Source: Elephas maximus
Lineage: Eukaryota
Direction: 5' to 3'
NCBI RefSeq assembly: GCF_024166365.1
Contig: NC_064841.1
Coordinates: forward strand, 46,439,680 to 46,503,679
DNA length: 64,000 nucleotides
Under the pieces are notes generated by a model that did not search any database, was not told the DNA's origin, and saw only the letters and a program-made list of their open reading frames with translations. Shown in pieces: positions 1,590-62,952 of the stretch; within the stretch, counting starts at the first letter, position 1; each line of letters starts with the position of its first letter. The position numbers were made by a program, and so were the translations under genes.

Positions 1590-1714
1590 CTGGGCTACGA
1601 CGTCTATTATTCTTCCCTTGATGTGAACATCCTCAAGAGGAACTAAATTCCCAGAGGTATCCTGAAGACCAGCTCCGATGTTGCTGGAAGTTTTGGTATC
1701 TGGTAACTGGTAAT
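1590..1714 (-). CDS. PARP4: PARP4 coding exon (VIT-domain start); translates (D)YQLPDTKTSSNIGAGLQDTSGNLVPLEDVHIKGRIIDVVAQ
   Basis: Open frame between acceptor tatatag|ATTACC and donor CCCAG|gtatgc on the minus strand. Translation matches my recollection of human PARP4 ...DYQLPDAKTSSSTKAGLQDASGNLVPLEDVHIKGRIIDTVAQ. Codon phase is continuous with the exon at 3473-3317. Confidence 0.8.
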
Positions 1715-2168
1715 CTATATATTAAAAACATTAATGTTAGTTTTTAAAACCATCCCTGCATGGTCTGTTTTTGTTATCTTAATTTTCACTCCTTCTCCTT
1801 CCCTTTATACATTATGTTATGACAACAGGACAAACAGCATTCTATGATTTTCAATAGCAAATTCTGAAAAGTAACTTAATTCAATTACCCAACCCGTTAC
1901 CGTCAAGTTAACCCTGACTAATGGTGACCCCATGTGTGTTAGGGTAGAACTATTGCTCCAGAGGGTTTTAGATGGCTGATTTTTCAGAAGTAGCTCACCA
2001 TGTCTTTCATTTAGCAGCCAAGTGCCTTAACCGTTTGTACTACCCAGGTACTCCACTTGGGTACAAGATCACAAGAAAAATGGGGGCAATATTTTCAAAA
2101 GACACTCCAGCCTTTTTAATCTAGAGACTTTGGGAGTCATCTTGAACACCTATAATCATGCTATTGCT

Positions 2169-2333
2169 TGGAAAAAAAAAAAAAAAACATTGCCGTTGAG
2201 ACAATTCCAACACAGAGACCCTACAGGAGAGAGGAGAACTGCCCCATAGGGTTTCCAAGGACTGACTGGTGGATTCGAACTGCCAACCTTTGGTTAGCAG
2301 TCATGTTCTTAAGCACTACACCACCAGGGCTCC
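2169..2333 (-). mobile_element. AfroSINE (tRNA-derived SINE), complete copy with T/A-rich tail
   Basis: Minus-strand reading starts GGGAGCCCTGGTGGTGTAGTG (A box), then GGCAGTTCGAATCC (B box), CCTTGGAAACCCTATGGGGCAGTTCT core and a CAACGGCAATG tail. Same family as the copies at 11228, 16782 and 27838. Confidence 0.8.
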
Positions 2334-3316
2334 CATTACTTGAAAGATATTGATTTAAACATACACACAAATACACAAGACATTTTAAAAATATCTAAGT
2401 AAATGAACCTCAAGCATGAATCTAGATTATCTGTATACCTCAACTTGTATTAGTCATTATTACGTATTTTGCCATAAAAGTGTTTTTAAGCAACATGAAG
2501 CTACATAGACTTTCAATTCAAGAATGATTAAATCAAACTTCTAATATACCATATTGAAAAGTGCTCAAGTATTATACTAGGTGATTCAGAAATATGTTAT
2601 GGCTAACTACAAACTATTTTACCACACGTTTCATTTAATGACTAACAGAAAAATTTGAAGTCATCTTCTTGAACACACATGAACATATACATGCTGAAAA
2701 AAAAATTTTATAACAGTTAAAAATGTTAACGTGTTATAATTTTACAATGCTACTAATTAATATTATAATACCTTGAACTTACAATCTTGTATTTTCTGAG
2801 AAGCTATCATCCTCTCATACATCTCTCCTACTAATAATATATATATACCACACATCAAAATTTATGGAGTATCTTCATTAATCCCTTTTAACCCTTATAG
2901 CAACACTGTGAAGCAAGAAGCTAATGATCAGAAAAATCATGCAATTTGTCCAAGACTACACAACCTAGGAAGTGGCAGGGTTGACACTCAAACTCAAGGT
3001 TCCTGATTAAAAAATTATATCTTCTGTCTATTCTGCCAAACCCCATTATATTTTTTTTGCACTGTGCTACCTTAAATTTTTTCAATGGGTTTTAGTATTA
3101 GCTATCCTGTGATGCACAAGTTAAATGTAGGTGTGCTAATAAAGTAACATGTAATTTTGAGATCACTTAACCTCTCTCAAGCATCCTGGTTTTTATTTGT
3201 ACAAAATAAAAAGGAAATATTTAGGCATGGGGTCCAGATTCAGTTACCAAACATGAAGATAAAACCCACTGAAAATACGATGTTTGAGTTCTATAAATGG
3301 AAAAGAAAAGTCTTAC

Positions 3317-3473
3317 CTTCACCCTTCGAAAAACTTGAAAACACAGGTAGGTATTCCTCTAATTCAGTATTACCACAAGGATGAAAATCCTTTATCTGGT
3401 CTCCAGGAATGCAAAATTTAATAATATAATTCATTTTAATCTGATTGGTTTTATATACAACAAATTCATCATC
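3317..3473 (-). CDS. PARP4: PARP4 coding exon (end of PARP catalytic domain, DDEFVVYK... catalytic-Glu motif)
   Basis: Acceptor cctag|GATGATG, donor GGTGAAG|gtaaga. Translation DDEFVVYKTNQIKMNYIIKFCIPGDQIKDFHPCGNTELEEYLPVFSSFSKGE matches recalled human DDEFVVYKTNQVKMKYIIKFSMPGDQIKDFHPSDHTELEEYRPEFSNFSKVE. Confidence 0.85.
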
Positions 3474-3682
3474 CTAGGCCAAACAGAAATTAACAGGGTG
3501 GTAAAAAACAAAACAAACAAAAAAAAACCATTGTTGGCAGGTATTCTTATAAAACACAATTTCATGTTTGCTAATTTAGGAAATATTGAATTCAGACCAT
3601 ACATATTCAGTCATTATTTACATTTAAGCATACCTAATAAAGGAGCAAAAAGTTGGCACTGTCTATTTCTTGATAAAAATAC

Positions 3683-3866
3683 CTCAAAGTCCGTGATGAC
3701 AGCTGCTGTTTGTGAGACTCCATGGACACTGTCATAACCTGGTGGGGCTTCTGTTAATGAAAAATCCTTCTTGTGTAAGTCCATACACTTCCCGAGGGCC
3801 ACATCACAAATGACCAAGAGTCTAGTGCCATCTGTCTCTCCTGGGCATGAATACTTAATGCTTGTA
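3683..3866 (-). CDS. PARP4: PARP4 coding exon (PARP catalytic domain core)
   Basis: Acceptor ttcctttcaaatatag|TACAAGC, donor GACTTTGAG|gtattt. Translation (S)TSIKYSCPGETDGTRLLVICDVALGKCMDLHKKDFSLTEAPPGYDSVHGVSQTAAVITDFE carries the PARP-family signature (L-x-CDVALG ... APPGYDSV) and matches recalled human PARP4 STSIKYSHPGETDGTRLLLICDVALGKCMDLHEKDFSLTEAPPGYDSVHGVSQTASVTTDFE. A 209-bp intron separates it from the next exon. Confidence 0.9.
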
Positions 3867-4486: not shown

Positions 4487-5118
4487 TCCTTTTTTTTTTT
4501 TTTTTAATTGTACTTTATATGAAGGTTTACAAAGCAAATAAGTTTCTCATTAAACAATTAATATACATATTGTTTTTGTGACACTGGCTGCCAACCCCAA
4601 AACATGTCAACACTCTCCCCTTCTTGACCTTGGGTTCCCCATTATGAGCTTTTCTGTCCCCTCCTGCCTTCTCATCCTTGCCTCCTGGGCTGGTGTGCCC
4701 CTTTAGTCTTGTTTTGTTTTATATAGGTGGTCTATCTAATCTTTGGCTGAAGGGTGAACCTCTGAAATGACTTCATTACTGAGCTATAAGGGTGTCCCGA
4801 GGCCATATTTTTGAGGTTTCTCCAGTCTCTGTAAGACCAGTAGGTCTGGTCTTTTATTTTTTTGTGTGACTAAGAATTTTGTCTACATTTTTCTCCAGCT
4901 CTGCCCAGGATCTTCTACTGTCATCCCTGTCTCAGGGCAGTTGGTGGTGGTAGCCAGGCACCATGTAGCTGTACTGGACTCAGTCTGGTAGAGGCTGTGG
5001 TAGTTGTGGTCCATTAGTTCTTTGGACTAATCTTTCCCTTGTGTCTTTGGTTTTCTTCTTTCTCCCTTGCTCCAGACGGGGTTAAGACCCGTGGAGTACC
5101 TTAGATGGCTGCTCACTC
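4487..5118 (-). mobile_element. L1 3'UTR fragment (older subfamily), poly-A tail shown as T18 at 4487-4505
   Basis: Reverse complement of the 3' end of element C at about 47440-48045 (GTTGACATGTCATGGGG...ACTTTCATCTAAAGTACAAT...An). Confidence 0.6.
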
Positions 5119-6055: not shown

Positions 6056-6152
6056 CCTGAGTGAATCACTGAAATATATCCCACTCCCAAGACTGCCGAC
6101 GTCTGTTCTTTTTACACCATGATCTTCAACTACTTTGGGTAAAAGCAGCCCT
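6056..6152 (-). CDS. PARP4: PARP4 coding exon (catalytic domain, GLLLPKVVED...GSGIYFSDSL); boundaries within 2 bp
   Basis: Acceptor ttcttttcag|AGGGCTG, donor TCACTCAG|gttagt. Translation GLLLPKVVEDHGVKRTDVGSLGSGIYFSDSL matches recalled human (CR)GLLLPKVVEDRGVQRTDVGNLGSGIYFSDSL. Confidence 0.75.
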
Positions 6153-6837: not shown

Positions 6838-8162
6838 ACATCATTTTTTTATTTATTCATTTTTATTGTACTTTAGATGAAGGTTTACAGAACTGGTTTC
6901 TCATTAAATGATTAATACACATAGTTTTGTGGCACTGGTTTGGTTGCCAACCCCATGACATGTCAACACTCTCCCTTCTCAACCTTGGGGTCCTCATTAC
7001 TAGGTTTCCTGTTCCCTACTGCCTTCTTGGTCTTGCCCCTGGTCTGGTGTGCCCATTTAGTCTCGTTTTGTTTTATGGGCCTGTCTAATCTTTAGCTGAA
7101 GGGTAAACCTCTGGAGTGATTTCATGACTGAGCTATAAGGGTATCTGGGGGCCATATTCTCCAGGTTTCTCCAGTCTCTGTCAGACTAGTAAATCTAGTC
7201 TTTTTTTGTGTGTGTGTGTGCGCGTGTGAGTTAGAATTTTGTTCTACATTTTTTTCCAGCTCTGTCCAGGACCTTCTATTGTGATCCCTGTCAGGGTAGT
7301 CAGTGGTGATAGATGGGGACCATCTAGTTGTACTGGACTCAGTCTGGTGGAGGCTGTGGTAGTTGTGGTCCACTAGTCCTTTGGACTAATCTTTCCCTTG
7401 TGTCTTTGGTTTTCTTCCTTCTCCCTTCCTCGAGATGGAGTGAGACCAGTGCAGTATCCTAAATGGCCACTCACAAGCTTTTAAGACCCAAGACGCTACT
7501 CATCAAAGTACAATGTAGAATATTTTCTTTATAAACTATGCTATGCCAATTGAGCTAGGTGTTCCCCAAGACCATGGTCCCCACAGTCCTCAGCCCAGTA
7601 ATGAGGTCCCTCAAGGAGTTTGGCTGTGTGAGCTTCCATGACCTTGCCTTCAACTGGCTTCCCCAGTATTGTGTACTGTCTTATCCTTCACTAACGTTAC
7701 CATTTATTTATTGTCTAGTTAGTGCTTTTCTCTCCCACCCCTTCCCTTCCTGGTAACCATCAAAGATCGTTAATTTTTGTGTGTAAACCTTTTCATGAGT
7801 TTTCATAGTAGTGGTCTCATACAATATTTGTCCTTTTGTGACTGACTTATTTTACTCAGCATAATGCCCTCCAGATTCATCCATGATGTGAAATGCTTTT
7901 CAGATTCATCATTGTTTTTTATTGTTGTGTAGTATTCCATTCTGTATATGTGCCATAGTTTATCCACTCATTTGTTGATGGGCACCCTAGGTTGTTTCCA
8001 TCTTTTTGCTAGTGTAAACAATGCCACAATGAACATGGGTGTGCATATGTCTATTCATGTGATGGCTCTTATTTCTCTAGGATATATTCCAAGCAGTGGG
8101 ATTGCCGGATCAAATGGTATTTCTATTTGGACATCCCTTCTTCAAGACCCATCTTGACACTT
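6838..8162 (-). mobile_element. L1 3' fragment (ORF2 C-terminus plus about 1 kb 3'UTR), 5' side cut off by a BovB insertion
   Basis: Positions 7920-8130 are the reverse complement of the L1 ORF2 3' coding region seen in sense orientation at 26280-26500. Positions 6838-7760 are the reverse complement of L1 3'UTR (compare 47040-48045). Confidence 0.8.
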
Positions 8163-9140
8163 ATTGTTGTTTTTGTTAGGTGCCGTCGAGTCAGTTCCGA
8201 CTCAGAGCAAACCTATGTACAACAGAACGAAATGCTGCCCAGTCCTGTGCCATCCTTACAATCATTGTTATGCTTGAGCTCATTGTTGCTGTCACTGTGT
8301 CGATCCACCTTGTTGAGGGTCTTCCTCTTGTCCGCTGACCCTGTACTTTGCCAAGCATGATGTCCTTCTCCAGGGACTGATCCCTCCTGACAACATGTCC
8401 AAAGTATGTAAGACACAGTCTCGCCATCCTTGCCTCTAAGGATCATCCTGGCCACACTTCTTCCAAGACAGATTTGGTCGTTGTTTTGGCAGTCCATGGT
8501 ATATTCAATATTCTTCGCCAACACCACAATTCAAAGGGGTCAACTCTTACTTTGGTCTTCCTTATTCATTCTCCGGCTTTCACATACATATGACGTGATT
8601 AAAAATACCATGGCTTGGGTCAGGCACACCTTAGTCTTCAGGGTGACATCTTTGCTCTTCAACACTTTGAAGAGGTCCTTTGCAACTGATTTACCCAATG
8701 CAATGTGTCTTTTGATTTCTTGACTGCCGCTTCCATGGCTGTTGATTGTGGATCCAAGTAAAATGAAATCCTTGATGACTTCAATCTTTTCTCCATTTAT
8801 CATGATGTTGCTCATTCGTCCAGTTGTGAGGATTTTTTTTTTCTTCATGTTGAGTTGCAACCCATACTGAAGGCTGTGGTCTTTGATCTTCATTAGTAAG
8901 TGCTTCAAGTATCTCAAGACTGTCAGTTTGTCATCTGTGGGGGCTTGTGTGTTGCTGTGATGCTGGAAGCTATGCTACCCGTATTCAAATACCGGCAGGG
9001 TCACCCGTGCAAGACAGGTTTTAGTTGAGCTTCCAGACTAAGACTAGGAAGAAGGACCTGGCAGTCTACTTCTGAAAAGCATTAGCCAGTGAAAACCTTA
9101 CAAATAGCAGCGGAACATCTGTAGACTTATCACCTCTAAA
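8163..9140 (-). mobile_element. BovB/RTE-type LINE, 3' portion (RT C-terminus, ORF2 C-terminal domain and tail)
   Basis: Minus-strand ORFs read ...RRDQSLEKDIMLGKVQGQRTRGRPSTRWIDTVTATMSSSITMIVRMAQDWAAFRSVVHRFALSRN (BovB ORF2 C-terminus) and ...LLGSTINSHGSGSQEIKRHIALGK... (RT). The element ends in GTGCCGTCGAGTC..., a tail shared with AfroSINE. Confidence 0.8.
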
Positions 9141-11227: not shown

Positions 11228-11393
11228 AACCAAAAAAGAAAGCCAAACCTGTTGCCACCAAGCTGATTCCGACTCCTAGCAACCCTATAGGACAGGGTAG
11301 GACTGCCCCACAGAGTTTCCAAGGAGCACTTGGTAGATCTGTACTGCCGACCCTTTGGTTAGCAGCCACAGCACCTAACGCCAGCAGGGTTTC
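11228..11393 (-). mobile_element. AfroSINE copy
   Basis: A/B boxes, CCTTGGAAACTCTGTGGGGCAGTCCTACCCTGTCCTATAGGGTTGCTAGGAGTCGGAATCAGCTTGGTGGCAAC core in minus-strand reading, A-rich flank. Confidence 0.8.
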
Positions 11394-11954
11394 CAATGGA
11401 TCACAAGGGGTATACATGTTAACAGTTGTTTTTGTAAACTATATTTAATCTAACTGGCTTATCATTATGTTACAAGGAATTGAAAAACCAATCAAGAACT
11501 ATGTAGAAATTAATCAATAAATTTAGGACTGAAAAGAAGGAATCTTAGTAAATGCTTATGTCCATACACATCAATACATTTAATCATTCTTGTTCTACCA
11601 TTTGATGAATGAGTCGTATAAATTAAAAACTGGCAAACCACTTACTAGCAGTGTGTACTTTGTGAATTTGGCAGTTCCTGTTAAATTGCCCTTGAAGATG
11701 TGTACTAATTTTCAATTCCACTAGAATGTGTGAAAAATGCTTGCTTCTTGCCAACACAGTGCATTATCCAAACTTTTCCATTTCTGTGACTGGTAGGTGA
11801 AAAATGGTACCATGCTGTACTTTGCATATTATATTTAAATTATTTTCAGTGATACTGAACACCTCTTCAAGTTTTAAAAGTCATCTATACTTCCTTTTCT
11901 GAAGTGTTTATGCCTATTTTTCTAGGGCATCATACCATTTTTTTTTTTTATCTT

Positions 11955-12140
11955 ATTGATGTTTAGGTGTTATTGTTGGTTGCCACTGAGTTGGCTCCAA
12001 CTCATGGTGACCCCATGTAGAACAGAACAAAACATTGCCTGGTTTTGAATCATCTTCATGACTGTTGGTATGCTTGTGTCTATTGTTTTTGCTGCTGTGT
12101 ATTCTGAGTGCCTTCCAACCTAGGGGGCTCATCTTCCAGC
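11955..12140 (-). mobile_element. BovB/RTE 3'-end fragment (or BovB-tailed SINE)
   Basis: GGTGTTATTGTTGGTTGCCACTGAGTTGGCTCCAACTCATGGTGACCCCATGTAGAACAGAACAAAACATTGCC parallels the BovB 3' ends at 8170 and 13310. Confidence 0.5.
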
Positions 12141-13309
12141 ACAATATTGCACAAGTAGGTACAGATCATATATTACAGAAATTAGCTTTTTGTTGGAGGT
12201 AAATGTTTTTTTACAGTTTTGTCATCCAAGTTTTGGCCTTGTTAACGATATCTTAAATTTTCATTGTGATAATTTTCAAGCATACATAAAATAGAGAGAA
12301 CAGTATAATAGTATAATGAAAGATAGTATTTTATGACATGTAGAAAGTTTCTGTTTTTATGTAGTTGATATTTTCTCTAGGATTTTTGGGTTTTGGTTCT
12401 ACTTATAAAGGCCATTCCTGCTCAAAGATTATTTTAGAAATTATTCTCACATTTTCATTTAGTACCTTTCTGGTTTCATTTTTAATATTTAAATCTTGGT
12501 TCTATCTAGAATTCACCTAAGTGTGAGGAGGAAGGTAAGAGTCAAACTTGTTTTCTCCAAGGACTACCAATTTATCCCACCACATAGTACTGAAGAAATT
12601 ATTTTTCTTCCACAGAGATGAAGCTACTTTTATCATATACTTAAATCCTTTATGCTTCTGCATTTATTTCTAGACTCTTTATTCTATTGACTTATGTATT
12701 TATGTAGCATCTCACTATTTTAATTAATATAGCTACACATTTTAATGTCTGGTTAATCCTCCCTCATTACTCTTCTTTTTCAGAATTATCTTGGTAATTT
12801 CAAATTTTTTTAAAGTATGTACTGTATTATTAGTGTTTTATTTCTTTTCAAAAATTGTGTTGGTACTATTATTGTGATAACACTAAATCTATAAATTAAT
12901 TTAAGAAAAGCGTCTTTTGGGTCCCTCAGTAGCAGTTTAAAGTCTTCTTCAGGCAGATCTTGCAAATTTCTTCTCAAGTTTCTTCTTCAGTATTTAACTA
13001 AGGATTTAAATTTAACCGTATTTTCCCCTGTCCCCTATGCCTTTAGTTTCAGCCTTAACATTAAGTGGTTATTCAAAGTAAGCAGAAAATTTGACTTGTG
13101 TTTTAAATAGATGTAATTCACAAGTTTTAGGCACTCTAATTTCTAGAATTTTCTCTTTTAAGTATTGGGCTATCCCTAGATTAGACACACATAAAAACCT
13201 AACCCAGTGCCATCGAGTAGACACACGTGGAAGCCATGAAATATAGTCACTTTTATTCATATTATACTGTCTTCAATAAGCAATTCATACCCATGCACTA
13301 CATTTTGAA

Positions 13310-14760
13310 ATTTGCTGCTGTTGTTGTTAGGTGCCATCATGTTGGTTTCAACCCATAGCAACCCCACATATAACGGAACGAAACACTGCCAAGTCCTGCG
13401 CTGTCCTGATAATCGTTGTTATGTTTGAGTCCATTTTTGAAGCCACTGTGTCAATCCATCTCATTGAGGGTCTTCCTCTTTTCGCTGACCCTGTACTTTA
13501 CCAAGCATGATGTCCTTCTCCAGGGATTGGTCCCTCTGATAACATGTCCAAAGTACATGAGATGCCCTCTGATAACATGTCCAAAGTACATGAGATGAAG
13601 TCTCGCCATCCTGGCTTCCAAGGAGCACTCTGGCTATACTTCCAAGGCGAACTTGTTCAGTCTTCTGGCAGTCCACAGTATATTCAACATTCCTTGCCAA
13701 CAACATAATTCAAAGGCATCAATTATTCTTCTGTCTTCCTTATTCACTGTCCATCTTTCACATACAAATGAGGCAACTGAAAATATCATGGCTTGGATCA
13801 GGGGCACCTTAGTCCTCAAAGTGACATCTTTGCTTTTTTAACCCTTCAAAGAGGTCTTTTGCAGCAGATTTACCCAATGCAATATGTTGTTTGATTTCTT
13901 GACTGCTGCTTCTATGAGTTTTGACTGTGGATCCAGGTATAATGAAATCCTTCACAACTTCAATCTTTTCTCCATTTATCATGATGTTGCTTATTAGTCC
14001 AGATGTGAGGATTTTTGTTTTCTTTATGTTGACATGTAATCCATGTAGTCTTTGATCTTCATCAGTAAGTGCTTCAAGTCGTCTTCCCTTTCAACATGCA
14101 AGGTTGTGTCATCTGCATATTGGAATGGGCACAAATATGCATCTCTTCCAGGCGGTTGGCCAGGTAGCTGTCTTCAAAATTTCTTAGCATAGATGAGTAA
14201 GCACCTCCAGCGCTGCATCTGTTTGTTGGAATATTTCAATTAATATTTTGTCAGTTCCTGGAGCCTTGTTTTTCACCAGTGCCTTCAGTGCAGCTTGGAC
14301 CACTTCCTTCAGTACCATAGGTTCTTGATCATATGCTATCTCCTGAAATGGCTGAATGTCAACCAATTTTCCTGGTACATTGTCTCTCTATATTCCTTCC
14401 ATCTGCTTTTGATACTTCCTGCGTCATTCAATATTTTGCTCATAATATTCTTGAAAATTGCAACTCGAGGCTTGAATTTTTCTTCAGTTCTTTCAGCTTG
14501 AGAAATGCCTTTTGATTTTCTAACTCCAGGTCTTTGCACATGTCCTTATAATATTTTACTTTGTCTTCTAGAGCTATCCTTTGAAATCTTCTGTTTGGCT
14601 CTTTTACTTCATGATTTCTTCCACTCATTACGTTTAAGAACAAGTTTCAGAGTCTCTTCTGACATTCATTTTCATCTTTTCTTTCTTTCCTGTCTTTTTA
14701 ATGACTTTTTGCTTTCTTCATGTATTATGTCCTTGAGGTCTTCCCACAACTGGTCTTTAG
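13310..14760 (-). mobile_element. BovB/RTE LINE 3' portion (about 1.45 kb: RT start KAPGTDKI... through ORF2 C-terminus and tail)
   Basis: Minus-strand ORFs ...AALKALVKNKAPGTDKILIEIFQQTD... and ...RRDQSLEKDIMLGKVQGQRKEEDP.... Collinear with the 8163-9140 copy. It contains a 29-bp tandem duplication at 13543-13600. Confidence 0.8.
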
Positions 14761-14959
14761 AAATAAATAATAATAAATCCATAATTTAAATTATATACCT
14801 AATTATAATGTTAAAGAGTATGATTTTCTTCAGACTGCATTAAGCTGGCTCATTTTAACTGAACAGACTCATACAGTATAAAAAATAATTACAAAGAAAG
14901 TAAAACACTTCATATTTGTGAAGCTAAAATATTGTAAAACAAAGATGGCATATTCTTAC

Positions 14960-15097
14960 CGGGATAGAATTCCTACAATGTTTCGTACAGGAGATCCATG
15001 CAATAAGGATTTCACGTTGCCAAGTTTGCTCAAAAATTCTGTGGTTTCATTCACTCTGCCAACTCTATATATCTGCAAGATGTCCACTGGACTTTTA
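14960..15097 (-). CDS. PARP4: PARP4 coding exon (catalytic domain N-terminal part)
   Basis: Acceptor ttttgcag|TAAAAGTCC, donor TATCCCG|gtaaga. Translation (S)KSPVDILQIYRVGRVNETTEFLSKLGNVKSLLHGSPVRNIVGILSR matches recalled human SKSPVDVLQIFRVGRVNETTEFLSKLGNVRPLLHGSPVQNIVGILCR. Confidence 0.85.
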
Positions 15098-16480
15098 CTG
15101 CAAAAATTAGGAAAAATACCAAAGGCTTGATTGAATTAGATGATATAATTGCTGGAGTACAGCTCCCCCTCCTCAGAGCTTGAAGACATAGTTTTTTTCT
15201 TCGTTCTGACTCCCTGAAGAAAACTAGGTCTCCCCCTCCTGATTCTACCTTCATTGTCACTAGACCTTTAATTTGTATTAGCTCTGATTCTCCCTTCATT
15301 GTCCCTAGACTCTTAATTTGTATTAGATCCCAGGAGATCCCCAGGGTGGAGAGTCAAAAGTAAAATCAAAAGACATCAAAAGAATTTTATAATATATAAA
15401 AGCAAAATCTGGAAAAAGACAGGGGGAATGTGTTTTGAGAACAACTGACCAACGAAGCCAAAAAAAATTTAGATAAGTCTGAATTAGTCCATGAGGGAGC
15501 AGTGGCTGGGTGTGGTTCTAGTGAGGTGCTAGAAAACCAGCTCTCCAAACAACAACATCCACAATCCTAACTTCTAGCATTTGCTGATTCCTGTGGTGCA
15601 TTTCAAGCTATGAATGGTTTAACAACAAGTTTGCAAAATTCCTGAAAATTTGACAATTGTTTTTCTCTGGCTAGTATGAGGCAGCTCCAATAAACCGCTG
15701 TTGGTTCCAAAGGGTGTGCAAGGTTGATGAAGGTTAAGCCCAGGCCAGTATAAAGAGAACTGAGATACCAGAAATGCCTGGGCTAAAGACTTCAGATGAG
15801 AACAGAGCTGTAGTAGAGTGAATGACCAAATCATTGAAAGTCAGTCCCGCCCTCTAGAAGAATCAATAAAATTAGTTTCTGAATCATGATGCTGGGTCTC
15901 CGCTCTGGGTCAAGGTTGTTCTACAGAGATGCTAGCATTAAACGAGGGCTTGTCTGACCAGATGAATCATCTGTTTGTTGTTATCGCTGCTGCCTAGAGT
16001 TAGAGAATGCACAAACACATGGATATGTATAGGAAATGAGGAGACGCATGAAAATGACATTTAAGGATGCCACATTTCATGACATGTTTTCCAACTTCAT
16101 ATATTCATGTTATACAACGGTCCTTGTAAAAGCTGCCACACACATACTCTTGCGTTTTTAAATCTTAATTTAAGTGGGTTTTCTTATTTAATACCCCTAA
16201 GAACATATAAGCTCAAACATCCTTTCATTTTAAAACTTTAAATTTAATTCTAAGCAAGATAGGGTAATCATGATGAGAGAGTGGAACAATAGTATCTTCA
16301 AGCATAAAAGACTGCCCAGGCCCTACTATAAATACAGAAGAAAGTAATTTGTCATCACAACATAATTGTCCTGTTACTAATGATTAACTGATCTAGGTAA
16401 TTGTGGTGAACCAGCTTTTTAACAGAATCTGAAATAGCATTACATAATAATAGATCATAAGATATTTCCTTTATGCTCAC

Positions 16481-16641
16481 CTGTGATTATTCTGTAATAT
16501 CACTTTCTTAACACTGAAAAATTCTTCTGTGTTCTGTTCAACATGCTCAATTTTGCATCTCAAAGCTCGGTATTTTGCAAGAGATGGTGGGTTGGGTTTG
16601 TACAAATTAGTTTCACAGACATTCACCATGTCTCTTATTAG
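16481..16641 (-). CDS. PARP4: PARP4 coding exon
   Basis: Acceptor tctatag|CTAATAAG, donor AATCACAG|gtgagc. Translation LIRDMVNVCETNLYKPNPPSLAKYRALRCKIEHVEQNTEEFFSVKKVILQNNH matches recalled human LIRDMVNVCETNLSKPNPPSLAKYRALRCKIEHVEQNTEEFLRVRKEVLQNHH. Confidence 0.85.
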
Positions 16642-16781
16642 CTATAGATGTAAATGATACCCTGATGTTAGAATCAACATGTACCAAAATTAATATTTAT
16701 ATCATATTAACACTTTATCAAAAAGTTTGTTAAAATAAGGGTTTTTCCCAAAGCTTTTGATCAAGATCTCCTTGTACTGTT

Positions 16782-41532: not shown

Positions 41533-41533
41533 G

Positions 41534-47500: not shown

Positions 47501-48045
47501 ATGAAGAAAACTAAACATAAAAGGGAAAGATGAGTCCAAAGGACTAACAGACCACATCTATCACGGCCTCCACCATTCTGAGTCCAGAACAGCTAGATGG
47601 TGCCCAGCTATCACCACCAACTGCTCTGACAGGGATCACAGTAGAGGGTCCCAGACAGAGCTGGAGAGAAATACAGAACAAAATTCTAACTACAAAAAAT
47701 GGCCACACTTCCTGGCCTGACAGAGACTGGGGAAACCCTGAGACTATGGCCCCCAGACACCCTTACAGGTAAGGAATGAAGTCACTCCTGAGGTTCACCC
47801 TTCAGCCAAAGATTAGACAGGTCCAAAAAACAAAACGAGACTAAAGGGGCACACTAGCACAGGGGCAAGGACTAGAAGGCAGGGGGAGAAAGGAAAGCTG
47901 GTAATTGGGAACCCAAGTTTGAGAAGGGAGAGTGTTGACATGTCATGGGGTTAACTAATGTCATAAGACAATATGTACATTAACTGTCTAATGAGAAACT
48001 AGTTTGTTCTGTAAACTTTCATCTAAAGTACAATTTAAAAAAAAA
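41534..48045 (+). mobile_element. Body of older L1 element C (ORF1 remnant, ORF2 EN/RT/C-terminus, 3'UTR, A9 tail); many stops and frameshifts
   Basis: EN domain ORF 43068-43754 (...GDFNTPLS...), RT pieces 44432-45628 (FADDMILY), C-terminal pieces to about 47100, 3'UTR ending ...CTAAAGTACAATTTAAAAAAAAA. Confidence 0.8.
44068..44330 (+). repeat. Inverted internal duplication: about 260 bp copy of element C positions about 43090-43350, inserted in opposite orientation inside C ORF2
   Basis: The reverse complement of 43100-43350 aligns almost base for base with 44075-44325 (GGCAGGTGTTCATTATGGTTATGTCTCCATCATG...TGTAAACAGCATACTGATGGGTCCTGTTTTTTT). It interrupts the ORF2 sequence between ...IIERV and [11 protein letters not shown].... 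Confidence 0.75.
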
Positions 48046-50118: not shown

Positions 50119-53100
50119 GAGATGGGGGAGGCAAGATGGGGGTATAGACAGATGCTTCCAGCGAGCCCTCTTTACAACAAAGACCTGAAAAAATAAGTGA
50201 AACGAGTATATTTGTGACAAACGCGGAGCCCTGAGCTTCAGACGCAAGCTTAAAAAACGAACTCAGGGGCCGGGAGACGAAGAGACCTTACAGAAGCAGA
50301 GAGGAGTTACTGGACATGAATCGCAGGGAGCCCTCAGGCACCATTCCTGAAGCAACAGCAGCGGCAGCGCGCTGGTACTAGGGTTCAGACGCAGTTTCCT
50401 TAGGGAGAAGCAGCCAGCCACACAGCCTACTCACACCTCCTAAACCTGAGAAGAATGGCACTCTCGGCAAAAGCAAGCTTCAGCAGATCATTTCCCTGGG
50501 CCTGAAATAGGCCCTGTTGAGCACCTACAGCAATCCTCCCAGCCTTGGGGAAGGAAAAAATTTACAATTGGTGGAAAAGAAAATTTGCTACCTCCACTAA
50601 CTAGGGGAGCTGAGGACAGAAGCGGCTCCTGTCCAGGCATAAACCGTCCATGGACGCTGACAAACTTTCCCTTCTGCATGGACCTCTGTGGGCGTATTTC
50701 GAGACAATAGACCCTTGATGGCAAATTCCAACCATTTCAGCTGTGCAGTGGAGAGGTGGGTGTTTGATGTTTGACTTTGGTTTCCCAATTAAACAAGGTC
50801 CTCACCGACCCACATCAGGAACCTAAGGACTGGTAGCTCCACTCAGGCCACCCAGCCACCCACGACAGGGGTCCAAAGATAACTGGTAACTCCCAGTCCT
50901 TATGACCAAAAACTTGGGGTGCCCATGGTCCCTCTGCAGAACCCACCCACCAGGATGCTCTAGGGAACAGAGACGCATTTTCTTCAGACACCTGGGGGTC
51001 AGTTCTCAGCGCCCTGCCTTATTCAGAGTGTGACCCCCTGTTACAATCAAATACCAGTATACATGCCAATCACCCCTGCCCCTCTAAGACTGTAGGACAG
51101 AGCCTGTACCACACACTTAATATCACCTACCTGGAAATCTGAGCTGAATTCATACAAGAAAACTGAATGGAATCCTAGGCTGATATACCTGATAGCAGCT
51201 CTAGCCAGCTGGCGGCAGGACACCAGAGCTCCAAACGTGAAAATAATCAAACTAGATCACTCAAGCAACACATACGGGTATAACAAAACAAAATAAGGCA
51301 AGCAGCTACGACACAGTAAGCAAGCATAAACTAATACAATAACTTATAGATGGCTCAGAGACGACAGTCAATATCAAGTCAAATAAAGAAACATACCATG
51401 ATACCTCAACAGGTTCTCAAAACAAAGAATCCAGGGAGCTTCTAGATCAAAGTGCATTCCTGGAATTATCAGATGCAGAATACAAAAGTTTAATATACAG
51501 AACCCTTCAAGATATCACGAAGGAAATGAGGCAATACGTAGACGAGCCAAGGAACACACAGATAAAGCAACTGAAAAAGTCAGAAAGATTATTCAGGAAC
51601 ATAATGAAAAGTTTAATAAGTTCGAAAAATCCATAGCAATCAGAAATTCAGAAGATTAACAACAAAATTACAGAATTAGATAACAATAGAAAGTCAGAGG
51701 AGCAGAACTGAGCAAGTAGAAGCTAGAATTTCTGAACTTGAAGACAAATCACTTCGCACTAATATATTTGAAGAAAAATCAGATAAAAGAATTTAAAAAA
51801 ATGAAGAAACCTTAAGAATCATGTGGGACTCTATCAAGAGAAATAACCCACGAGTGATTGGAGTACCACAACAGGGAGGGATAACAGAAAATACACGGAA
51901 AACTGTTGAAGATTTTTTGGCAGAAAACTTCCCTGACATTGTGAAATGTCAGAAGATTTATCCAAGATGCTCATCAAACTCCACATAAGGTAGATCTGAA
52001 AAGAAAGTCACCAAGACATATTATAATCAACCTTCCCAAAACCAAAGATAAAGAGACAATTATAAGAGCAGTGAAGGATAAACAAAAAGTCACCTACACC
52101 TACAATAGAGAGCCAAAAAGAATAAACTCGGACTACTCAGCAGAAACAATGCACGCAAGAAGGCAAAGGGATAACATATTTAAAAAATTGAAGGAAAAAA
52201 ATTGCCTGCCAAGAATCATAAATCTCCATCAAAACTGTCTCTGAAATATGAAGGTAAAATTAAGACATTTTCAGATAAATACAAGTTGAGGGAATTCGTA
52301 AAAAGCAAGCCAAAACTACAAGAAATACTAAAGGGAGTTCTTTGGTTAGAAAACCAATAATATCAGGTATCAACCCAAGACTAGAACACTGGGCAGAGCA
52401 ACCAGAAGTCAACCCAGACAGGGGAATCGAAAAAACAAAAAAAAAAGGAAGATTAAAAAAAAAAAAGCCCAACACAGGGTAACGGCGATGTTATTATTTA
52501 AAAGATGACAGGTTTAAGAAATGTAATCATACACCTTCCATATGGAGAGGAAGACATGGCGAAACAAACAAAAGTTAGTTATAAATTTAGAAAAATAAGG
52601 GTAAATAATAAGGTAACCACAAAGAAGACAAACTATCCTACCCATCAAAATAAAATACAAGGGAAAAATACAGACTCAGCAGAAACAAAATCAACAACAA
52701 ATATGAGGAAAGGACAATATATAAAGAAAATCTACTCAGCACATAAAATCAAGTGGGAAAAACAAGCTGCCAACACACAAAAAAAGACATCAAAATGATA
52801 GCACTAAATTCATACCTATCCATAATTACCCTGAATGTAAATGGACTAAATGCAGCAACAAAGACACAGAGAGTGGCAGAATGGATTAAAAAACACGATC
52901 TGTTTATATGCTGCCTACAAGAGACACACCTAAGACTTAGAGACACAAACAAACTAAAACTCAAAGGATGGAAAAAAATATATCAAGCAAACAACAATTG
53001 AAAAAGAGCAGGAGTGGCAATATTAATTTCTGACAAAATAGACTTTCAAGTTAAATCCATCTGAAAGGATAAGGAAGGACACTATATAATGATTAAAGGG

Positions 53101-56100
53101 ACAATACACCAAAAAGATATAACCATATTAAATATTTATGCACCCAATCAGAGGGCTGCAAGATACATAAAACTCTATCAGCGTTAAAAAGTGAGGTAGA
53201 CAGCTCCACAATAATAGTAGGAGACTTCAACACACCACTTTCAGCGAAGGACACGACATCCAGAAAGAAGCTCAATAAAGACACGGGTTATATAAATGCT
53301 ACAATCAACCAACTTGACCTCATAGACATATACAGAACACTCCACCCAACAGCAACCAACTATGCTTTCTTTTCTAGTGCACATGGAACATTCTCTAGAA
53401 TAGACCACATATTAGGTCATAAAGCAAGCCTTAGCAGAATACAAAACATTGAAATATTACAAAGCATCTTCTCTGACCACAAGGCCATAAATGTGGAAAT
53501 CAATAACAGGAAAAGCAGGGAAAAGAAATGAAACACTTGGAAACGAACAATACCCTGCTCAAAAAAGACTTCATTATACAAGACATTAAGGATACAATAA
53601 GGAAATTCAGAGAATCTAATGAGAGTGAAAATACTTCCTATCAGAACCTTTGGGACACAGCAAAAGTGGTCTCAGAGGCCAATTTATATAAATAAATGCA
53701 CACATTCAAAAAGAAGAAAGAGCCAAAATCAAAGAATTATTCCTACAACTTGAACAAATAGAAAGAGAGCAACAAAAGAAAGCCACAGGTACTAGAAGAA
53801 AACAAATAATAAAAATTAGAGCTGAACTAACTGAAATAGAAAGCACAAAAACAATTGAAAGAATTAACAAGACCAAAAGCTGGTTTTTTTAAAAACTGAA
53901 CAAAATTGATAAACCACTGGCCATACTGACAAAAGAAAAGCAGGAGAGGACGCAAATAACCCGAATAAGAAAGGAGAGGGGCGATACTACAACAGACCCA
54001 ACTGAAATGAAACGAATCATATCAGATTACTATGAAAAACTATACTCAAATTTGAAAACCTAGAAGAAACGGATGAATTCCTAGAAATACACTAGCTACC
54101 TAAACTAACACAAACAGAGGTAGAACAACTAAATAGTCCCATAACAAAAGAAGAGATTGAAAAGGTAATCAAAAAACTCCCAACAAAAAAAAAGCCCTGG
54201 TCCGGATGGCTTCACTGCAGAGTTCTACCAAACTTTCAGAGAAGAGTTAACACCACTACTACTAAAGGTATTTCAGGGCATAGAAAAGGATGGAATACTA
54301 CCTAACTCATTCTATGACACCACCATATCCCTGATACCAAAACCAGGTAAAGACACCACAAGAAAAGAAAATTATAGACCTGTATCTCTCATGAATGTAC
54401 ATGGAAAAATCCTGAACAAAATTCTAGCCAATAGAGTTCAACGACATATCAAAAAAATAATTCACCATGACCAAGTGGGACTCATACCAGGTATGCAGGA
54501 ATGGTTCAACATTAGAAAAACAATTAATTGTAATCCACCACATACATAAAAAAAAAAAGACAAGAATCGCATGACTTTATCAATTGATGCAGAAAAGGCA
54601 TTTGACAGTTCAACACCCATTCATGATAAAAACTCTCAGCAATATAAGAATAGAAGGAAAATTCCTCAACCTAATAAACAACATTTATACAAAGCCAATA
54701 GCCAACATCACCCTAAATGGAGACAGCCTGGAAGCATTCCCATTGAGATCGGGTACCAGACAAGGATGCCCTTTATCACCGCTCTTATTCAAATTGTGTT
54801 GGAGGTCCTAGCCAGAGCAATTAGGCTAGATAAAGAAATAAAGTGCATCCATATTGGCAAGGAAGAAGTTAAAGTATCTCTATTTGCAGATGACGTGATC
54901 TTATACACAGAAAACCCTATGGAATCTTCCAGAAAACTACTGAAACTAATAGAAGAGTTCAGCAGACTATCAGGATACAAGATAAACATACAAAAATCCA
55001 TTGGATTTCTCTACACCAACAAAAAGAACATCGAAGAGGAAATCACCAAATCAATGCCATGTACAGTAGCCCCCAAGAAGATAAAATACTTAGGAATAAA
55101 TCTTACCAGAGATGTAAAAGACTTATACAAAGAAAACTACAGTACACTTCTGCAAGAAACCAAATGAGGCTTAGGTAAGTGGAAGAACATACCTTGCTCC
55201 TGGATCGGAAGACTTAACTTTATAAAAATGTCTACTCTACCAAAAGCAATCTATACATTTAATGCAATTCTGATCCAAATCCCAACGACATTCTTTAATG
55301 AGATGGAGAATCAAGTCACCAACTTCATAGGCAAGGGAAAGAGGCCCCGGATAAATAAGGCATTACTGAAAAAGAAGAACAAAGTGGGAGACCTTACTTT
55401 ACCTGATTTTAGAACCTATTATACCACCACAGTAGTCAAAACAGCCTGGTACTGGTACAAGAACAGATACATAGACTAATGGAACAGAATTGAGAATCCA
55501 GGCATAAATCCATCCACATACGAGCAGCTGATATTTGACAAAGGCCCCAAAACAGTTAAATGTGGAAAAGACAATCTTTTTAAAAAATGGTGCTGGCATA
55601 TGGATATCCATCTGCAAAAAAAAGAAACAAGTCCCATACCTCACTCCATGCACAAAAACAAGCTCGAAATGGATTAAAGGCCTAAATATAAAATCTAGAA
55701 CGATAGAGATCATGGAAGAAAAAATAGGCACATTAGGAGCCCTAATACATGGCATAAACAGTATACAAAACATTATTAAGAATGTAGAAGAAAAACTAGA
55801 TAACCGGGAGCTCCTAAAAATCAAACACCTATGTGCATCCAAAGACTTCACTGAAACAGTAAAAAGACTACCTACAGACTGAGAAAAATTTTTACCTATG
55901 ACATTTCCGATCAGTGCCTGATCTCTAAAATCTACAGGATACTGCAAAAACTCAACTACAAAAAGACAAATAACCCAATTAAAAAATGGGCAAAAGATAT
56001 GAATAGACACTTCACTAAAGAAGACATTCAGGGAGCTAACAGATTCATGAGCAAATGTTCACGATCATTAGACATATGAAGATCAAAACTACAATGAGAT

Positions 56101-57606
56101 TTCATCTCACTCCAACGAGGCTGGCATTAATCCAAAAAACACCAAATAATAAATGCTGGAGAGGCTGTGGAGAGACTGGAACACTTATACAGTGCTGGTG
56201 GGAATGTCAAATGGTACAACTACTTTGGAAATCGATTTGGCACTTCCTTAAAAAGCTAAAAATAGAACTACCATACGATCCAGCAATCCCACTCCTTAGG
56301 ATATAGCCTAGAGAAATAAGAGCCTTTACATGAACATATGTATATATATGCACACCCATGTTTACTGCAGCACTGTTTACAATAGCAAAAACATGGAAGC
56401 AACCAAGGTGCCCATCAACAGATGACTGGATAAATAAATTATGGTATATTCACACAATGGAGTAATACACATCGATAAAGAACAGTGAGGAATCTGTGAA
56501 ACATTTCATAACATGGAGGAACCTGGAAGGCATTACGCTGAGTGAAATTAGTCAGTTGCAGAAGGACAAATATTGTATAAGACCACTATTATAAGAACTT
56601 GAGAAACAGTTTAAACTGAGAAGAAAACATTCTTTTGTGGTTACGAGAGGGGAGAGGGAGGGAGAGTGGGAGAGGGGTATTCAACAGTTAGATAGTAGAT
56701 AAGAACTACTTTAGGTGAACACAATTCAGGGGAGGTCAGCACAACTGGACTAAACCAAAAGCAAAGAAGTTTCCTGAATAAACTGAATGCTTTGAAGGCC
56801 AGTGCATCGGGGCAGGGGGTTAGGGACTATGGTTTCAGGGAACATCTAAGTCAACTGGCATAATAAAATCTATTAAGAAAACATTCTGCATCCCACTTTG
56901 AAGAGTGGTGTCTTGGGTCTTAAACACTAGCAAGCAGCCATCTAAGATGCATCAATTGGTCTCAACCCACCTGATCAAAGGAGAATGAAGAACACCAAGG
57001 ACACAAGGCAATTACCAGCCCAAGAGACAGAAACGGCCACATGAAGCAGAGACTAGATCATCCTGAGACCAGAAGAACTAGATGGTGCCCAGCTACAAGT
57101 GATGACTGCCCTGACAGGGAACACAACAGAGAACCCCTGAGGGAGAAGGAGAGCAGTGGGATGCAGACGCCAAATTCTCATAAAAACACCAGACTTGATG
57201 GTCTGACCGACACTAGAAGGGCCCTGGTGGTCATGGCCTCCAGACCTTCTCTTGGCCCAGGAGAGAAACCACACCCGAAACCAACTCATCAGACATGGAT
57301 TAGACAGGACAATGGGTTGGAGAGAGATGCTGATGAGGATTGTGCTACTTGCATCAGGTGGACAGCTGAGACTATGTTGGCATCTCCTGCCTGGAGGGGA
57401 GATAAGAGGGTAGAGGGGGTTAGAAACTGACGAAATGGACACGAAAAGAGAGAATGGAGGGAGAGAGCAGGCTCTCTCATTAAGGGGAGAGGACTTTGGA
57501 GTATGTAGCACGGTGTATATAAGTTTTTGTGTGAGAGACTGAACTGATTGGTAAACTTTCACTTAAAGAACAATAAAAATTATAAAAATAAAGAAAAAAG
57601 AAATTA
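50119..57606 (+). mobile_element. Full-length LINE-1 (element E, about 7.5 kb, a different subfamily from A and B) inserted into F; probable TSD about AAGAAATTA
   Basis: 5' end ...GGCAAGATGGGGGTATAGACAG...CCCTCTTTACAACAAAGACCTG. ORF1 from about 51351, ORF2 from about 52797 (MIALNSYLSIITLNVNGLN...) through about 56580, 3'UTR, A-rich tail. Many stops; no ORF longer than 200 aa in sense. Confidence 0.85.
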
Positions 57607-59371
57607 GAAGAACTGAAAAACACTATAACCAACTATACCTAACAGACATATGTAAAACACTCCACCCAACACAGTATACATTCTTCCCAGCACACGTGGA
57701 TCACTCCCCAGGATAGATCATATCTTAGGAAACAAAGCAAGGTTCAATAAATTTTTAAAGAATTGAAATCAAACAAAGTATCTTTTCCAATCACAACAGA
57801 ATAAAATTAGAAATTAATAACAGAAAGAAAGCTGGTAAGTACACAAATATGAAGAAACTAAATAGCACAGTATTAAATAGCCAATGGATCAAAGAAGAAA
57901 TCAAGAGAGCAGTCAAAAAATATTTAGAGTTGAACAAGAATGAAAACACAACATACCAAAATCTACAGGATGCAGCAAAGGCAAAACTCAGGGAAATTTA
58001 TAGCAATAAATGCCTACATTAAAAAGGAACAAAAATCCCAAATTAACAGCCTACCTCTACAACTACAGGAATGAGAAAAGGAAGAACAAAGTAAGCCAAA
58101 AGCTACCAGAAAAAAAATAATAAAGACCAGAGCTGAAATAGATGAAATAATGAATAGAAAACAGTAGAGAAAATAACAAAACCAGAAGTTGGTTTTTTAA
58201 AAGATCAATAAAATCGACAAACCTTTGGCTAGACTGACAAAGAAAAGAGGAAATGCAAGTATCTAAAACTAGAAACAAATGCAAGGATATTACAACTGAC
58301 CCTACAGAAATAAAAAGGGAATACTATGAACAGCTGTAGGCCAACAAATTAGAAAACTTAGAGGAAATGGACAAATTATTTTGAAACACATAAACTCCCT
58401 ACATTGACTCAAGAAGAAATAGTGGATCTCAACAGACCCACACAAGGTGAAGAGATTGAGTCAGTAAAGCAAAAACCTCCCAACAAATCTAAGTCTTGGA
58501 CCAGATGATTTCACTGGGAAATCCTACCAAACATTTACAGAAGTGACTCCGATCCTGCTTAAACTTTTCCCAAAAACAGAAGAGAAGGGAACACTTCCTG
58601 GCTCATTCTATGAGGCAAGAATTACCCTGATACCAAAGCCAAAAAAAAGACACCAAAAGAAAACTATAGACCAATATCCCTAATGAGCAGAAACCCAAAA
58701 ATACTCAACAAAATACTAGCAAACTGCATCCAAAAACATATTAAACGCATTATACAACATGATCAAGTGGGATTTTCCCCAAGAATGCAAGGGTGGTTCA
58801 ACATTAGAAAATCAGTTGATATAATATACCACATTAATAGAACAAAGGAAAAGAAAGAAGCACATGATCATCCCAGTCAATGCAGAAAAGGTATTTGACA
58901 AAGTTCAACACCCTTTCATAATAAAAACAAACAGGAATAGAAAAGAAATTCCTCAGTGTAATAAAGGGCATTTATGAAAAACCTATAGCTAACATCCATA
59001 CTCAAAGGAGAAAAACAGAGCTTTCGCATTAAGATCAAGAACAAGACAAGGATGTTCACACTCACCACTGCTATTCAACATTATTCTGGAATCCCAGCCA
59101 GAAAAATTAAGCAAGGAAAAAAAAAAGTATCCACACTGGGAAGAAGGAAGTAAAAGTATCCCTTTTCCCAGACAACATGATTCCATATACAAAAAACTCC
59201 AAAGAGTCCACAAGAAAGCTATTAGAACTAATAAATGAATTCAACAAAGTGGCAGTGAACAAGGTCAACACAGAAAAATCAGTGGTGTTTCTATACATCA
59301 GCAATGATCAAGTGAAAAAAGATATTAAGGAAATACTACCATTTACAATAGCACATAAAAGAATAAAGTAC
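57607..59371 (+). mobile_element. Element F, segment 2 (ORF2 EN end and RT)
   Basis: Continues the F reading frame across the E insertion. RT motifs ...[18 protein letters not shown]... Confidence 0.7.
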
Positions 59372-60502: not shown

Positions 60503-61224
60503 GTACCTAGGAATAAATTTAACCAGGAAGGTTATACACAAAAAATTATAAAACATTACTAAAAGAAATTAAAGAAGACCTACATAAATGGAAGGCCATT
60601 TCATGTTAATGGATTGGAAGGTTTAATATCCTTAAGGCATCAATACTACTCAAAAAAAGCAATCTATAAATTCAATGCAATCGGAATTCCAACAGCCTTC
60701 TTCACAGAAATGGCAGACCCAATCCTCAAATTTATATGAAAGAGCAAGGAACTCTGAAAAGCTGAAGTAATCTTGAAGAATAATAAAGTAGGAGGACTCA
60801 TGCTTCCTGATTTCTAAACATACTATAAAACCACAATAATAAAAACATCCTGGGACTGGTATAATAACAGATATGTAGACCAACGGAATAAAATTGATAG
60901 TCTGGAAATAAACCCATGTATCTGTGGTCGACTCATTTTCTATGAGGGTGGTAAGTCCATTTGATGGGGAAGGAAGAATCTCTTCAAATAACTGCTGGGA
61001 AACTTCAATTTCCATATGCAGAAGAATGAATCAGGATCTATGCCTCACACCATATACAAAAAACAATTCAAAATGGATCAAGGACGTAAATGCAAAAACT
61101 AAAACCATACAATTCTTAGAAAAAAACATAGAAGTGTGGGTGCAGGGCTTAGTTTTCAATGATAACAGAAGCATGAGCAACAAAAGATAACATAGATAAA
61201 TGGGACCTCATAAAATTAAATACT
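60503..61224 (+). mobile_element. Element F, segment 3 (ORF2 RT to C-terminus)
   Basis: Frame ...LGINLTRKVIHKKL...[31 protein letters not shown]... continues the L1 ORF2 order. Confidence 0.7.
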
Positions 61225-61335
61225 TCTGTTCAAGTGCTCCTTGGAAACCGTATGGGGAAGTTCTACTCTGTCCTATAGGGGTGCTATGAGTCAGAATCCA
61301 CTCAACAGCAACAGGTTTGGGGTTTTTTTGTTTGT
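61225..61335 (+). mobile_element. AfroSINE 3' half (5'-truncated), plus orientation
   Basis: CTCCTTGGAAACCGTATGGGGAAGTTCTACTCTGTCCTATAGGGGTGCTATGAGTCAGAATCCACTCAACAGCAACAGGTTTGGGGTTTTT. Confidence 0.6.
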
Positions 61336-61339
61336 TTTC

Positions 61340-61745
61340 TGTTTTTTAATTTTTATTGTGCTTTAAGTCAAAGTTTACAAATCAAGTCAGTCTCTCATAG
61401 AAAAACTCATATACACCTTGCTATATATATACCTAGGTGCTTTCCCCCTAATGAGACAGCACACTCCTTCTCTCCACTCTCTATTTTCATGTCCATTCTG
61501 TCAGCTTCTGACTCCCTCTGCGTTCTCATCTTCCCTCCAGACAGAAATTACCCATATAGTCTCATGTTTCTACTTGATCCAAAAAGCTCACTCCTCACCA
61601 GTATCATTTTTTATCCCATAGTCCAGTCCAATCCCTGTCTGAAGAGTTGGCTTTGGGAATGGTTCCTGTCTTGGGCTAACAGAAGTCTGGGGCTCATGAC
61701 CTCTGGGGTTGGTTTTGGCTTTTTGTTTGTCAAAGGACTTTACCA
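61340..61745 (-). mobile_element. L1 3'UTR terminal fragment in minus orientation (its poly-A shows as a T-run at about 61320-61350)
   Basis: TTTTTATTGTGCTTTAAGTCAAAGTTTACAAATCAAGTCAGTCTCTCATAGAAAAACTCATATACACC... parallels the minus-orientation L1 tails at 4487 and 6838. Confidence 0.55.
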
Positions 61746-62760
61746 AAGACTGAAGACACAGCCTACGGATTGGTAAAAATTTAGGGGACCATAAATCTGA
61801 CAAAGGCCTAATATCCAAAATACCAAAAAAAAAAAACGACTATAACTTAAGAACAAAATGGCAAACGATACAATCAAAATATGGGTAAAGGCTTTAGTAG
61901 ACATTTCACCAAAGAGGATATTCAAATGGTCAATAAGCACACGAAAAGATGCTCAATGTCATTAGCCATTAACCAAAATAGAGATGCCAATCAAAACCGC
62001 AGTGAGATACCACCTCACTCCCATTAGTATGGCAATGATCAAAAAAAAAAAAAAACAAAAAAGCAAGAGGTGTTGGTGAGGTTGTGGAGAAACTGGAATC
62101 CTCATCCACTGCTAGTGGGAATATAAAATGGTACAACAACTGTTTGGCAGTTCCTGAAAAAGTTGAACAGAGAATTACGATATAACCCATTAATGCTAAT
62201 CCTAGGCACATACCCAGCAGAAACAAATGCAGGAACACAAACAGAAACCTGTACACCAAAGTTCATTGTAGCACTTTTCACAATAGTGAAAAGGTGGAAA
62301 CAACCGAAATGTCCATCAACAGATGAATGGATGAACAAAATGTGGCATATAGATACAATGGAATATTACTCAGCCGTAAAGAGAAACGAAGTCCTGATAC
62401 ATGCCACAATGTGGATGAACCTCAAGAACTGAGCGAAATAAGTCAGTCACAAAAGGACATATATTGTATGATCTCACTTATATTTAATAAGCAAACATAT
62501 AGAAACCAGAAATTATTAGTGGTTACCAGAGGTGGGAGGAAGGGCCAAAGGAAAAGTTATTGCTTACGGGCAGTGAGTTTATGTTAACAATGGTGAATAA
62601 ACTGGTGAAAGATAGCAAAAATGCTTGCAAAACTTGAAGAATGTAATCAATGTGACTAAATTAAAAAAAATTACACAGGTAGAAATTGTTGAATTGGCCT
62701 ATGTTTTGTCATGCATATTTTCACCTCAATAAAAAGAACTACTAAATGAATAACAAAAAG
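61746..62760 (+). mobile_element. Element F, segment 4 (ORF2 C-terminal domain and 3'UTR, L1M-type ending ...CACCTCAATAAAAAGAACTAC)
   Basis: ...SDKGLISKI...FTKEDIQMVNKHTKRCSMSLAINQNRDANQNRSEIPPHSH...NGILLSRKEKRSPDTCHNVDEPQELSEISQSQKDIYCMISLI-like frames, typical of old L1M 3' ends. Confidence 0.7.
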
Positions 62761-62802
62761 TAATTATGGCCAAAAGAACAAACACACAGATATCAATCTT
62801 AC

Positions 62803-62952
62803 CGCTTGTAATTTTTCAGATGCTAATTCGGTTGCTTCAGGTGTAAAATTTTCTCTTAGCAGAAATCCTTGTTTCTTCAGCTCTTCAATATAATTTTCAT
62901 AGTACTCACTTGCATCTGCAGAAGTTTTCTTTCCAGAGAATTGTCTTCTAGT
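62803..62952 (-). CDS. PARP4: PARP4 coding exon (first in the window in transcript order)
   Basis: Acceptor tgtaatttacag|ACTAGAAG, donor CAAGCG|gtaaga. Translation TRRQFSGKKTSADASEYYENYIEELKKQGFLLRENFTPEATELASEKLQA matches recalled human TRRQFAIKKTSEDASEYFENYIEELKKQGFLLREHFTPEATQLASEQLQA. Confidence 0.85.

Follow-up and report, generated by a model that had tools for sequence, protein, structure and literature searches.

The 64,000 nucleotides of Elephas maximus DNA analyzed here (contig NC_064841.1, hereafter "the window") very probably represent an internal 61-kb stretch of a placental-mammal PARP4 ortholog, with nine constitutive, canonically spliced coding exons on the minus strand. PARP4 is the vault poly(ADP-ribose) polymerase (vault PARP), a protein that now goes by the name of protein mono-ADP-ribosyltransferase PARP4. 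The exons run from position 62952 down to position 1590, and joined in this order they give a product of 1323 nt (441 codons) with no stops and no frameshifts. We establish here the exon structure of the segment, its identity, the conservation of its residues and the purifying selection acting on it. An earlier note, made from the letters of the sequence alone, had proposed nine collinear minus-strand PARP4 exons read in one continuous phase; all of its peptide ends were recovered where it had placed them, in nine segments flanked by AG and GT, and the phase runs through every junction without a stop.

Identity was assessed with the joined 441-residue product. Searched against PDB chains with phmmer, it matched human PARP4 (11jf_P, 9bw6, 9bw7) at 844 bits and an E-value of 1.6e-253, aligning all 441 of its residues to human residues 198–638 without a gap and at 86.4% identity; the assignment to PARP4 made in the earlier note is thereby confirmed. 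The crystallized human catalytic fragment (8sx1), which spans the catalytic domain (CAT, 242–573) including its helical domain (HD, 282–364), was likewise matched without gaps (648 bits, same search). These domain limits are those of the human PARP4 constructs and were taken from PMC10711553. The named relatives returned by a search of 5.8 billion proteins were PARP4 from horse, whales, birds, lizards, and frogs. Among Pfam profiles, the PARP catalytic domain (PF00644) was found with an E-value of 6.8e-40 over profile positions 1–198 of 199, and the regulatory domain PARP_reg (PF02877) was marginal at residues 61–159, with 27.2 bits against a cut-off of 26.8.

The genomic side of the evidence comes from tblastn of two PARP4 proteins against the whole window, a check of the kind proposed in the earlier note. 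The queries were a mammalian PARP4 (protein P0001, from the spliced cDNA contig L001; Logan SRR31578205) and horse PARP4 (P0002). They produced exactly nine collinear minus-strand blocks with E-values from 3e-11 to 3e-29, and nothing else in the 64 kb was significant. Since each block reaches such a value alone, and the joined product 1.6e-253, the nine exons are not chance matches. Barring two noise matches, tblastn found no further PARP4 exon at E ≤ 10 in positions 1–1589, in positions 62953–64000 or in the 33.8-kb intron.

All 18 boundaries of the nine exons carry the expected AG acceptor or GT donor, and the segment would be transcribed and spliced as predicted. The exons are described here from the upstream end, all on the minus strand, with E-values from tblastn; window residue numbers equal human numbers minus 197. 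Exon 1 (62803–62952; 150 nt, phase 0 to 0; cag/ACT to GCG/gtaaga; E 3e-24) encodes window residues 1–50 (human 198–247), comprising the last ~44 residues of a WGR-like domain (PF26166, detected on the L001 product) and the start of the N-terminal helix of CAT. An extension of this exon to 62997, suggested by tblastn over 15 residues, holds an in-frame stop and only scattered matches; it was rejected as an alignment artifact and the acceptor at 62953/62954 was kept. Exon 2 (28866–29003; 138 nt; cag/TTG to GAT/gtaagt; E 1.5e-17) contributes residues 51–96 (human 248–293), with the N-terminal helix and the beginning of the helical domain, which continues in exon 3 (20423–20596; 174 nt; aag/GTG to CAG/gtaaat; E 1.5e-25; residues 97–154, human 294–351). 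In exon 4 (16481–16641; 161 nt, the last 2 nt being a partial Ser codon; tag/CTA to CAG/gtgagc; E 9e-25, 92% identity; residues 155–207, human 352–404) the helical domain ends and the ADP-ribosyltransferase (ART) fold begins, and the fold extends as far as exon 8.

The catalytic residues are distributed over the following exons. Exon 5 (14960–15097; 138 nt; cag/TAA to CCG/gtaaga; E 5e-21; residues 208–253, human 405–450) holds the catalytic His, and exon 6 (6057–6152; 96 nt; cag/AGG to CAG/gttagt; E 3e-11; residues 254–285, human 451–482) the catalytic Tyr together with the substitution N471S. Exon 7 (3683–3866; 184 nt; tag/TAC to GAG/gtattt; E 3e-29; residues 286–347, human 483–544) carries T484, K516, and E544 and the motifs CDVALG and PPGYDSV, and exon 8 (3317–3473; 157 nt; tag/GAT to AAG/gtaaga; E 7e-22; residues 348–399, human 545–596) carries D545 and the catalytic Glu; within it the ART fold ends and a linker begins. 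The linker is completed in exon 9 (1590–1714; 125 nt; tag/ATT to CAG/gtatgc; E 6e-19, 93% identity; residues 400–441, human 597–638), which closes with 16 residues from the beginning of the VIT domain, forming its first strand; the remainder of that domain falls beyond the window. The VIT start, placed by Pfam at residue 456 of P0001 (window residue 426), shares 15 of its 16 residues with human PARP4 and is continuous with the VIT domain of P0001. The N-terminal BRCT domain, the C-terminal vWA domain, and the region of interaction with the major vault protein lie outside the window, and tblastn gave no blocks for them in 62953–64000 or 1–1589.

Introns 1–8 measure 33799, 8269, 3781, 1383, 8808, 2190, 209, and 1603 bp, in agreement with the range of 209 bp to 33.8 kb given in the earlier note. 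Four of the eight junctions (exons 4/5, 5/6, 6/7, and 8/9) split a codon. It is at these four that the exon limits of the note need correction by 1–2 nt: its peptide was right throughout, the limits having been read through intron bases to the right residue. The domains that it named, the catalytic one and the beginning of VIT, were correct, but the list lacked the helical domain and also the tail of the WGR-like domain. Human PARP4 has about 34 exons.

The catalytic triad of human PARP4 consists of H438, Y477, and E547 (PMC10711553), and all three residues are kept in the window as H241, Y280, and E350. Judging from the homologous human enzyme, the structure of which is solved, His241 and Tyr280 would bind NAD+ and Glu350 would catalyze the transfer of ADP-ribose. 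In the human enzyme T484, N471, K516, E544, and D545 make up a disabled acceptor site that permits mono-ADP-ribosylation only (PMC10711553). Four of these PARP4-type residues (T484, K516, E544, and D545) are identical here, and an acceptor site of this kind, with Thr in place of Lys903 of PARP1, Lys516, and the pair Glu544/Asp545, would confine the elephant enzyme to mono-ADP-ribosylation; the mechanism is drawn from established knowledge of PARP4 in the same study. The fifth residue, N471, is replaced by Ser (residue 274; codon 6091–6093, minus strand), a conservative and polar change that does not give the Met of PARP1 and PARP2. We note that N471S is lineage-specific, the Asn being kept in human, P0001, and horse, and that the position is listed with the acceptor site in PMC10711553. 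A second lineage-specific change, H490C (residue 293; codon 3844–3846, minus strand), replaces a His that is kept in the same three proteins; it lies four residues past the Tyr of the "IKY" motif, next to the region of the nicotinamide-stacking Tyr. Identity to human is 86–88% in the WGR tail, the helical domain, and the ART fold, 75.5% in the linker (human 574–622) and 94% in the VIT start.

Comparison of the 441 codons with the L001 cDNA gave a nonsynonymous rate (dN) of 0.064 and a synonymous rate (dS) of 0.467, hence a dN/dS of 0.137, with 34, 29, and 101 differences at codon positions 1, 2, and 3. By this pattern of substitution the nine-exon segment is under purifying selection. Over the 441 residues, identity is highest with P0001 (87.3%), followed by human (86.4%) and horse (82.5%). 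Residues unique to one lineage number 22 in the window, 17 in human, and 34 in horse, and by these counts the elephant lineage is without acceleration. A processed or decayed pseudogene was rejected on the grounds of the eight introns, the 441 codons without a stop, the intact AG and GT sites, the dN/dS of 0.137 and the lack of any excess of unique changes. As judged from the nine exons, these features support a functional gene, and the view of the earlier note that this is no pseudocopy is supported for the segment, with introns present, lesions absent, dN/dS low, catalytic residues kept, and no acceleration of the lineage.

A recent unprocessed pseudocopy of PARP4, arisen by segmental duplication and lesion-free so far while the real gene lies elsewhere, is a different matter, and one that we regard as unlikely. 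Partial PARP4-like copies do occur in some mammals, such as the "PARP4-like" protein of the bonobo (P0017) and the shortened protein of the minke whale (P0018), in whose locus (L003) exon 2 is poorly conserved; in addition, the window covers part of the gene only. Such a copy would have to have avoided every stop, frameshift, and splice-site loss in nine exons, with dN/dS at 0.14 and unique changes at 22 (17 in human, 34 in horse), and to have kept all catalytic and PARP4-diagnostic residues save for the conservative N471S. That the segment instead consists of exons of another PARP with the His-Tyr-Glu triad (PARP1, PARP2, or PARP3), or of chance open reading frames (ORFs) in repeat-rich DNA, has a vanishingly small probability: the ART fold and the helical domain are common to PARP1–3, which do appear among the PDB matches, but these reach at most 81 bits (PARP2 ~81, PARP1 ~72, PARP3 ~55, roughly ten times lower) against 844 bits for a gapless match to PARP4 at 86% identity, T484, K516, E544, and D545 are present, each exon is significant alone (E 3e-11 to 3e-29), and a VIT start after the ART fold is an arrangement found here only in PARP4 relatives.

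Several points weigh against a functional, canonically spliced PARP4 gene. The donors of two exons are below consensus (GTTAGT and GTATTT), and the acceptor of exon 3 is preceded, at a distance of 42 nt, by the 5′ end of a full-length antisense L1 element; efficient splicing is for these reasons an assumption. The dN/dS value averages the whole inter-order divergence (dS 0.47), and a very recent loss of constraint would escape it. Finally, the window holds 441 of about 1720 codons, and lesions elsewhere or a second copy would be out of view; the gene would be expected to be complete beyond the window.

The order of domains in the segment (WGR-like tail, HD, ART, linker, VIT) is the same as in human PARP4 (8SX1, 8SWY; 9BW6, 9BW7, 11JF), from which it differs by 60 substitutions; 22 of these are lineage-unique, including N471S and H490C, and the linker is the most diverged region. 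The same 441 residues are found without gaps in P0001/L001 and in horse PARP4, and P0001 runs on from the terminal VAQ into the VIT domain. Both come from other mammalian orders and, in contrast to the genomic window, represent spliced transcripts or protein predictions. PARP1, PARP2, and PARP3 share the HD and ART architecture and the His-Tyr-Glu triad (PMC10711553), but have Lys at the T484 position, lack the VIT continuation and score only ~55–81 bits; for these three reasons the window is not one of them.

Exon structure could be compared with a PARP4-like locus of the turkey (L002; GCA_000146605.4), where all nine coding blocks recur in unchanged order. Seven of its eight junctions agree with those in the window to within a few residues, at window residues ~50, 97, 155, 207, 254, 286, and 347; the remaining one belongs to the linker, where conservation is poor, and was not placed. 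Protein identity is 49–68% per exon, and the nine turkey exons occupy ~10.6 kb, compared with 61.4 kb here. The minke whale locus (L003 positions 11730–16950; OX465368.1) is annotated as a PARP4 of 264 residues and contains the first four of the present nine exons in 5.2 kb, where the window needs 46 kb; its exon 2 is 48% identical, it lies ~0.4 Mb from the contig end, and it looks truncated or degenerate. It was considered as a mammalian comparator for the junctions and left unused as an apparent truncated or degenerate copy.

The large introns of the segment are explained by insertions of L1 and of short interspersed nuclear elements (SINEs). The L1 copies are almost all antisense to PARP4, on the plus strand, and encode ORFs with L1 ORF1 domains, endonuclease, and reverse transcriptase (RVT_1). 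Their strong antisense bias explains why the plus strand is A-rich over 20–60 kb, with an AT skew of +0.3. Three plus-strand copies measure ~6.3 kb: those at 21250–27553 and 35193–41531 are 91% identical, and that at 51323–57599 is ~81% identical to the others. Older plus-strand pieces lie at 41718–47758, 57627–59371, and 60504–62471, and L1 makes up some two thirds of intron 1 (33.8 kb). Only two 3′ fragments, both short, have the sense of the gene (4490–5116 and 6846–8128).

The first of the three copies is a full-length element (20639–27549, plus strand) with an intact 5′ end (CTTGCGGCCAAGATGGCGG...) and a poly-A tail, flanked by a 13-bp target-site duplication, AAAATTAGAGAAA, at 20626–20638 and 27550–27562. 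Its ORF2 is broken, the longest piece being 657 residues. A fragment of this young ORF2 (23049–25022, plus strand) is 60–70% identical to L1 proteins of horse, rabbit, pig, dog, rodents, primates, and cow, and 55–56% to those of marsupials; the distance to the placental groups listed is equal, and the host is a placental whose order is not represented among the annotated L1 proteins in the database. Ahead of the second copy, 2.4 tandem monomers of 213 bp are found at 33637–34139, with a GC content of 0.58 and an observed/expected CpG ratio of about 0.6; they hold the highest CpG density in the window and look like a monomeric L1 5′UTR.

SINEs were followed by a 34-nt 3′ motif of a putatively AfroSINE-like body. 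A Hamming-distance scan found 10 CpG-decayed copies of this motif in the window, against none in 30 shuffles (1898–1931, 8181–8214, 11253–11286, 11981–12014, 13332–13365, 16802–16835, 20185–20218, 27853–27886, 29639–29672, and 61277–61310). Five copies have tails of the GGTTT/GGTTTT type and five have CAA tails. The two tail classes, (GGTTT)n/(GGTTTT)n and (CAA)n, are those given for the AFROSINE families of elephants (PMC6007223), and a horse SINE has CAA tails too. On these tails the afrotherian origin implied in the earlier note is plausible and an afrotherian host likely, short of proof. No paper printing the motif turned up in a literature search for the string itself, and a scan at Rfam gathering thresholds together with ARAGORN (window positions 1–64000) found no RNA genes, no tRNA-like SINE heads, and no Alu/7SL-type signal.

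Some further features were noted in the introns. Within intron 1, positions 30000–33450 have a GC content of 0.44–0.55 and are CpG-poor (observed/expected 0.08–0.24), with degenerate direct repeats of ~140 bp at 32517–32871; ORFs of the GC-rich 30–33 kb stretch gave no Pfam match. Introns 4 and 5 contain two short tandem duplications, one of 2 × 45 bp with 90% identity (15239–15326, some 140 nt ahead of the exon 5 acceptor) and one an exact 2 × 33 bp (13532–13597).

The full-length L1 near exon 3 could alter PARP4 expression in this lineage, either by weakening the splicing of exon 3 or, by analogy with the antisense promoter of human L1, by giving rise to transcripts that start there, and we judge this very unlikely. 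If true, transcripts starting at exon 3 would encode a PARP4 without the BRCT and WGR domains, which reduce its catalytic output in vitro (PMC10711553).

The earlier note had also stated that the identity of this gene would be found in no feature table; PARP4 is routinely annotated in vertebrate genomes, and there is no novelty in the identification, which is standard annotation of an already known and structurally characterized gene. The useful outputs are the exact exon coordinates and the evidence for purifying selection, which matter little beyond correct annotation. As for the gene itself, its expansion to 61 kb here, against ~10.6 kb for the same nine exons in the turkey, is due to the accumulation of L1 and SINE copies in its introns.

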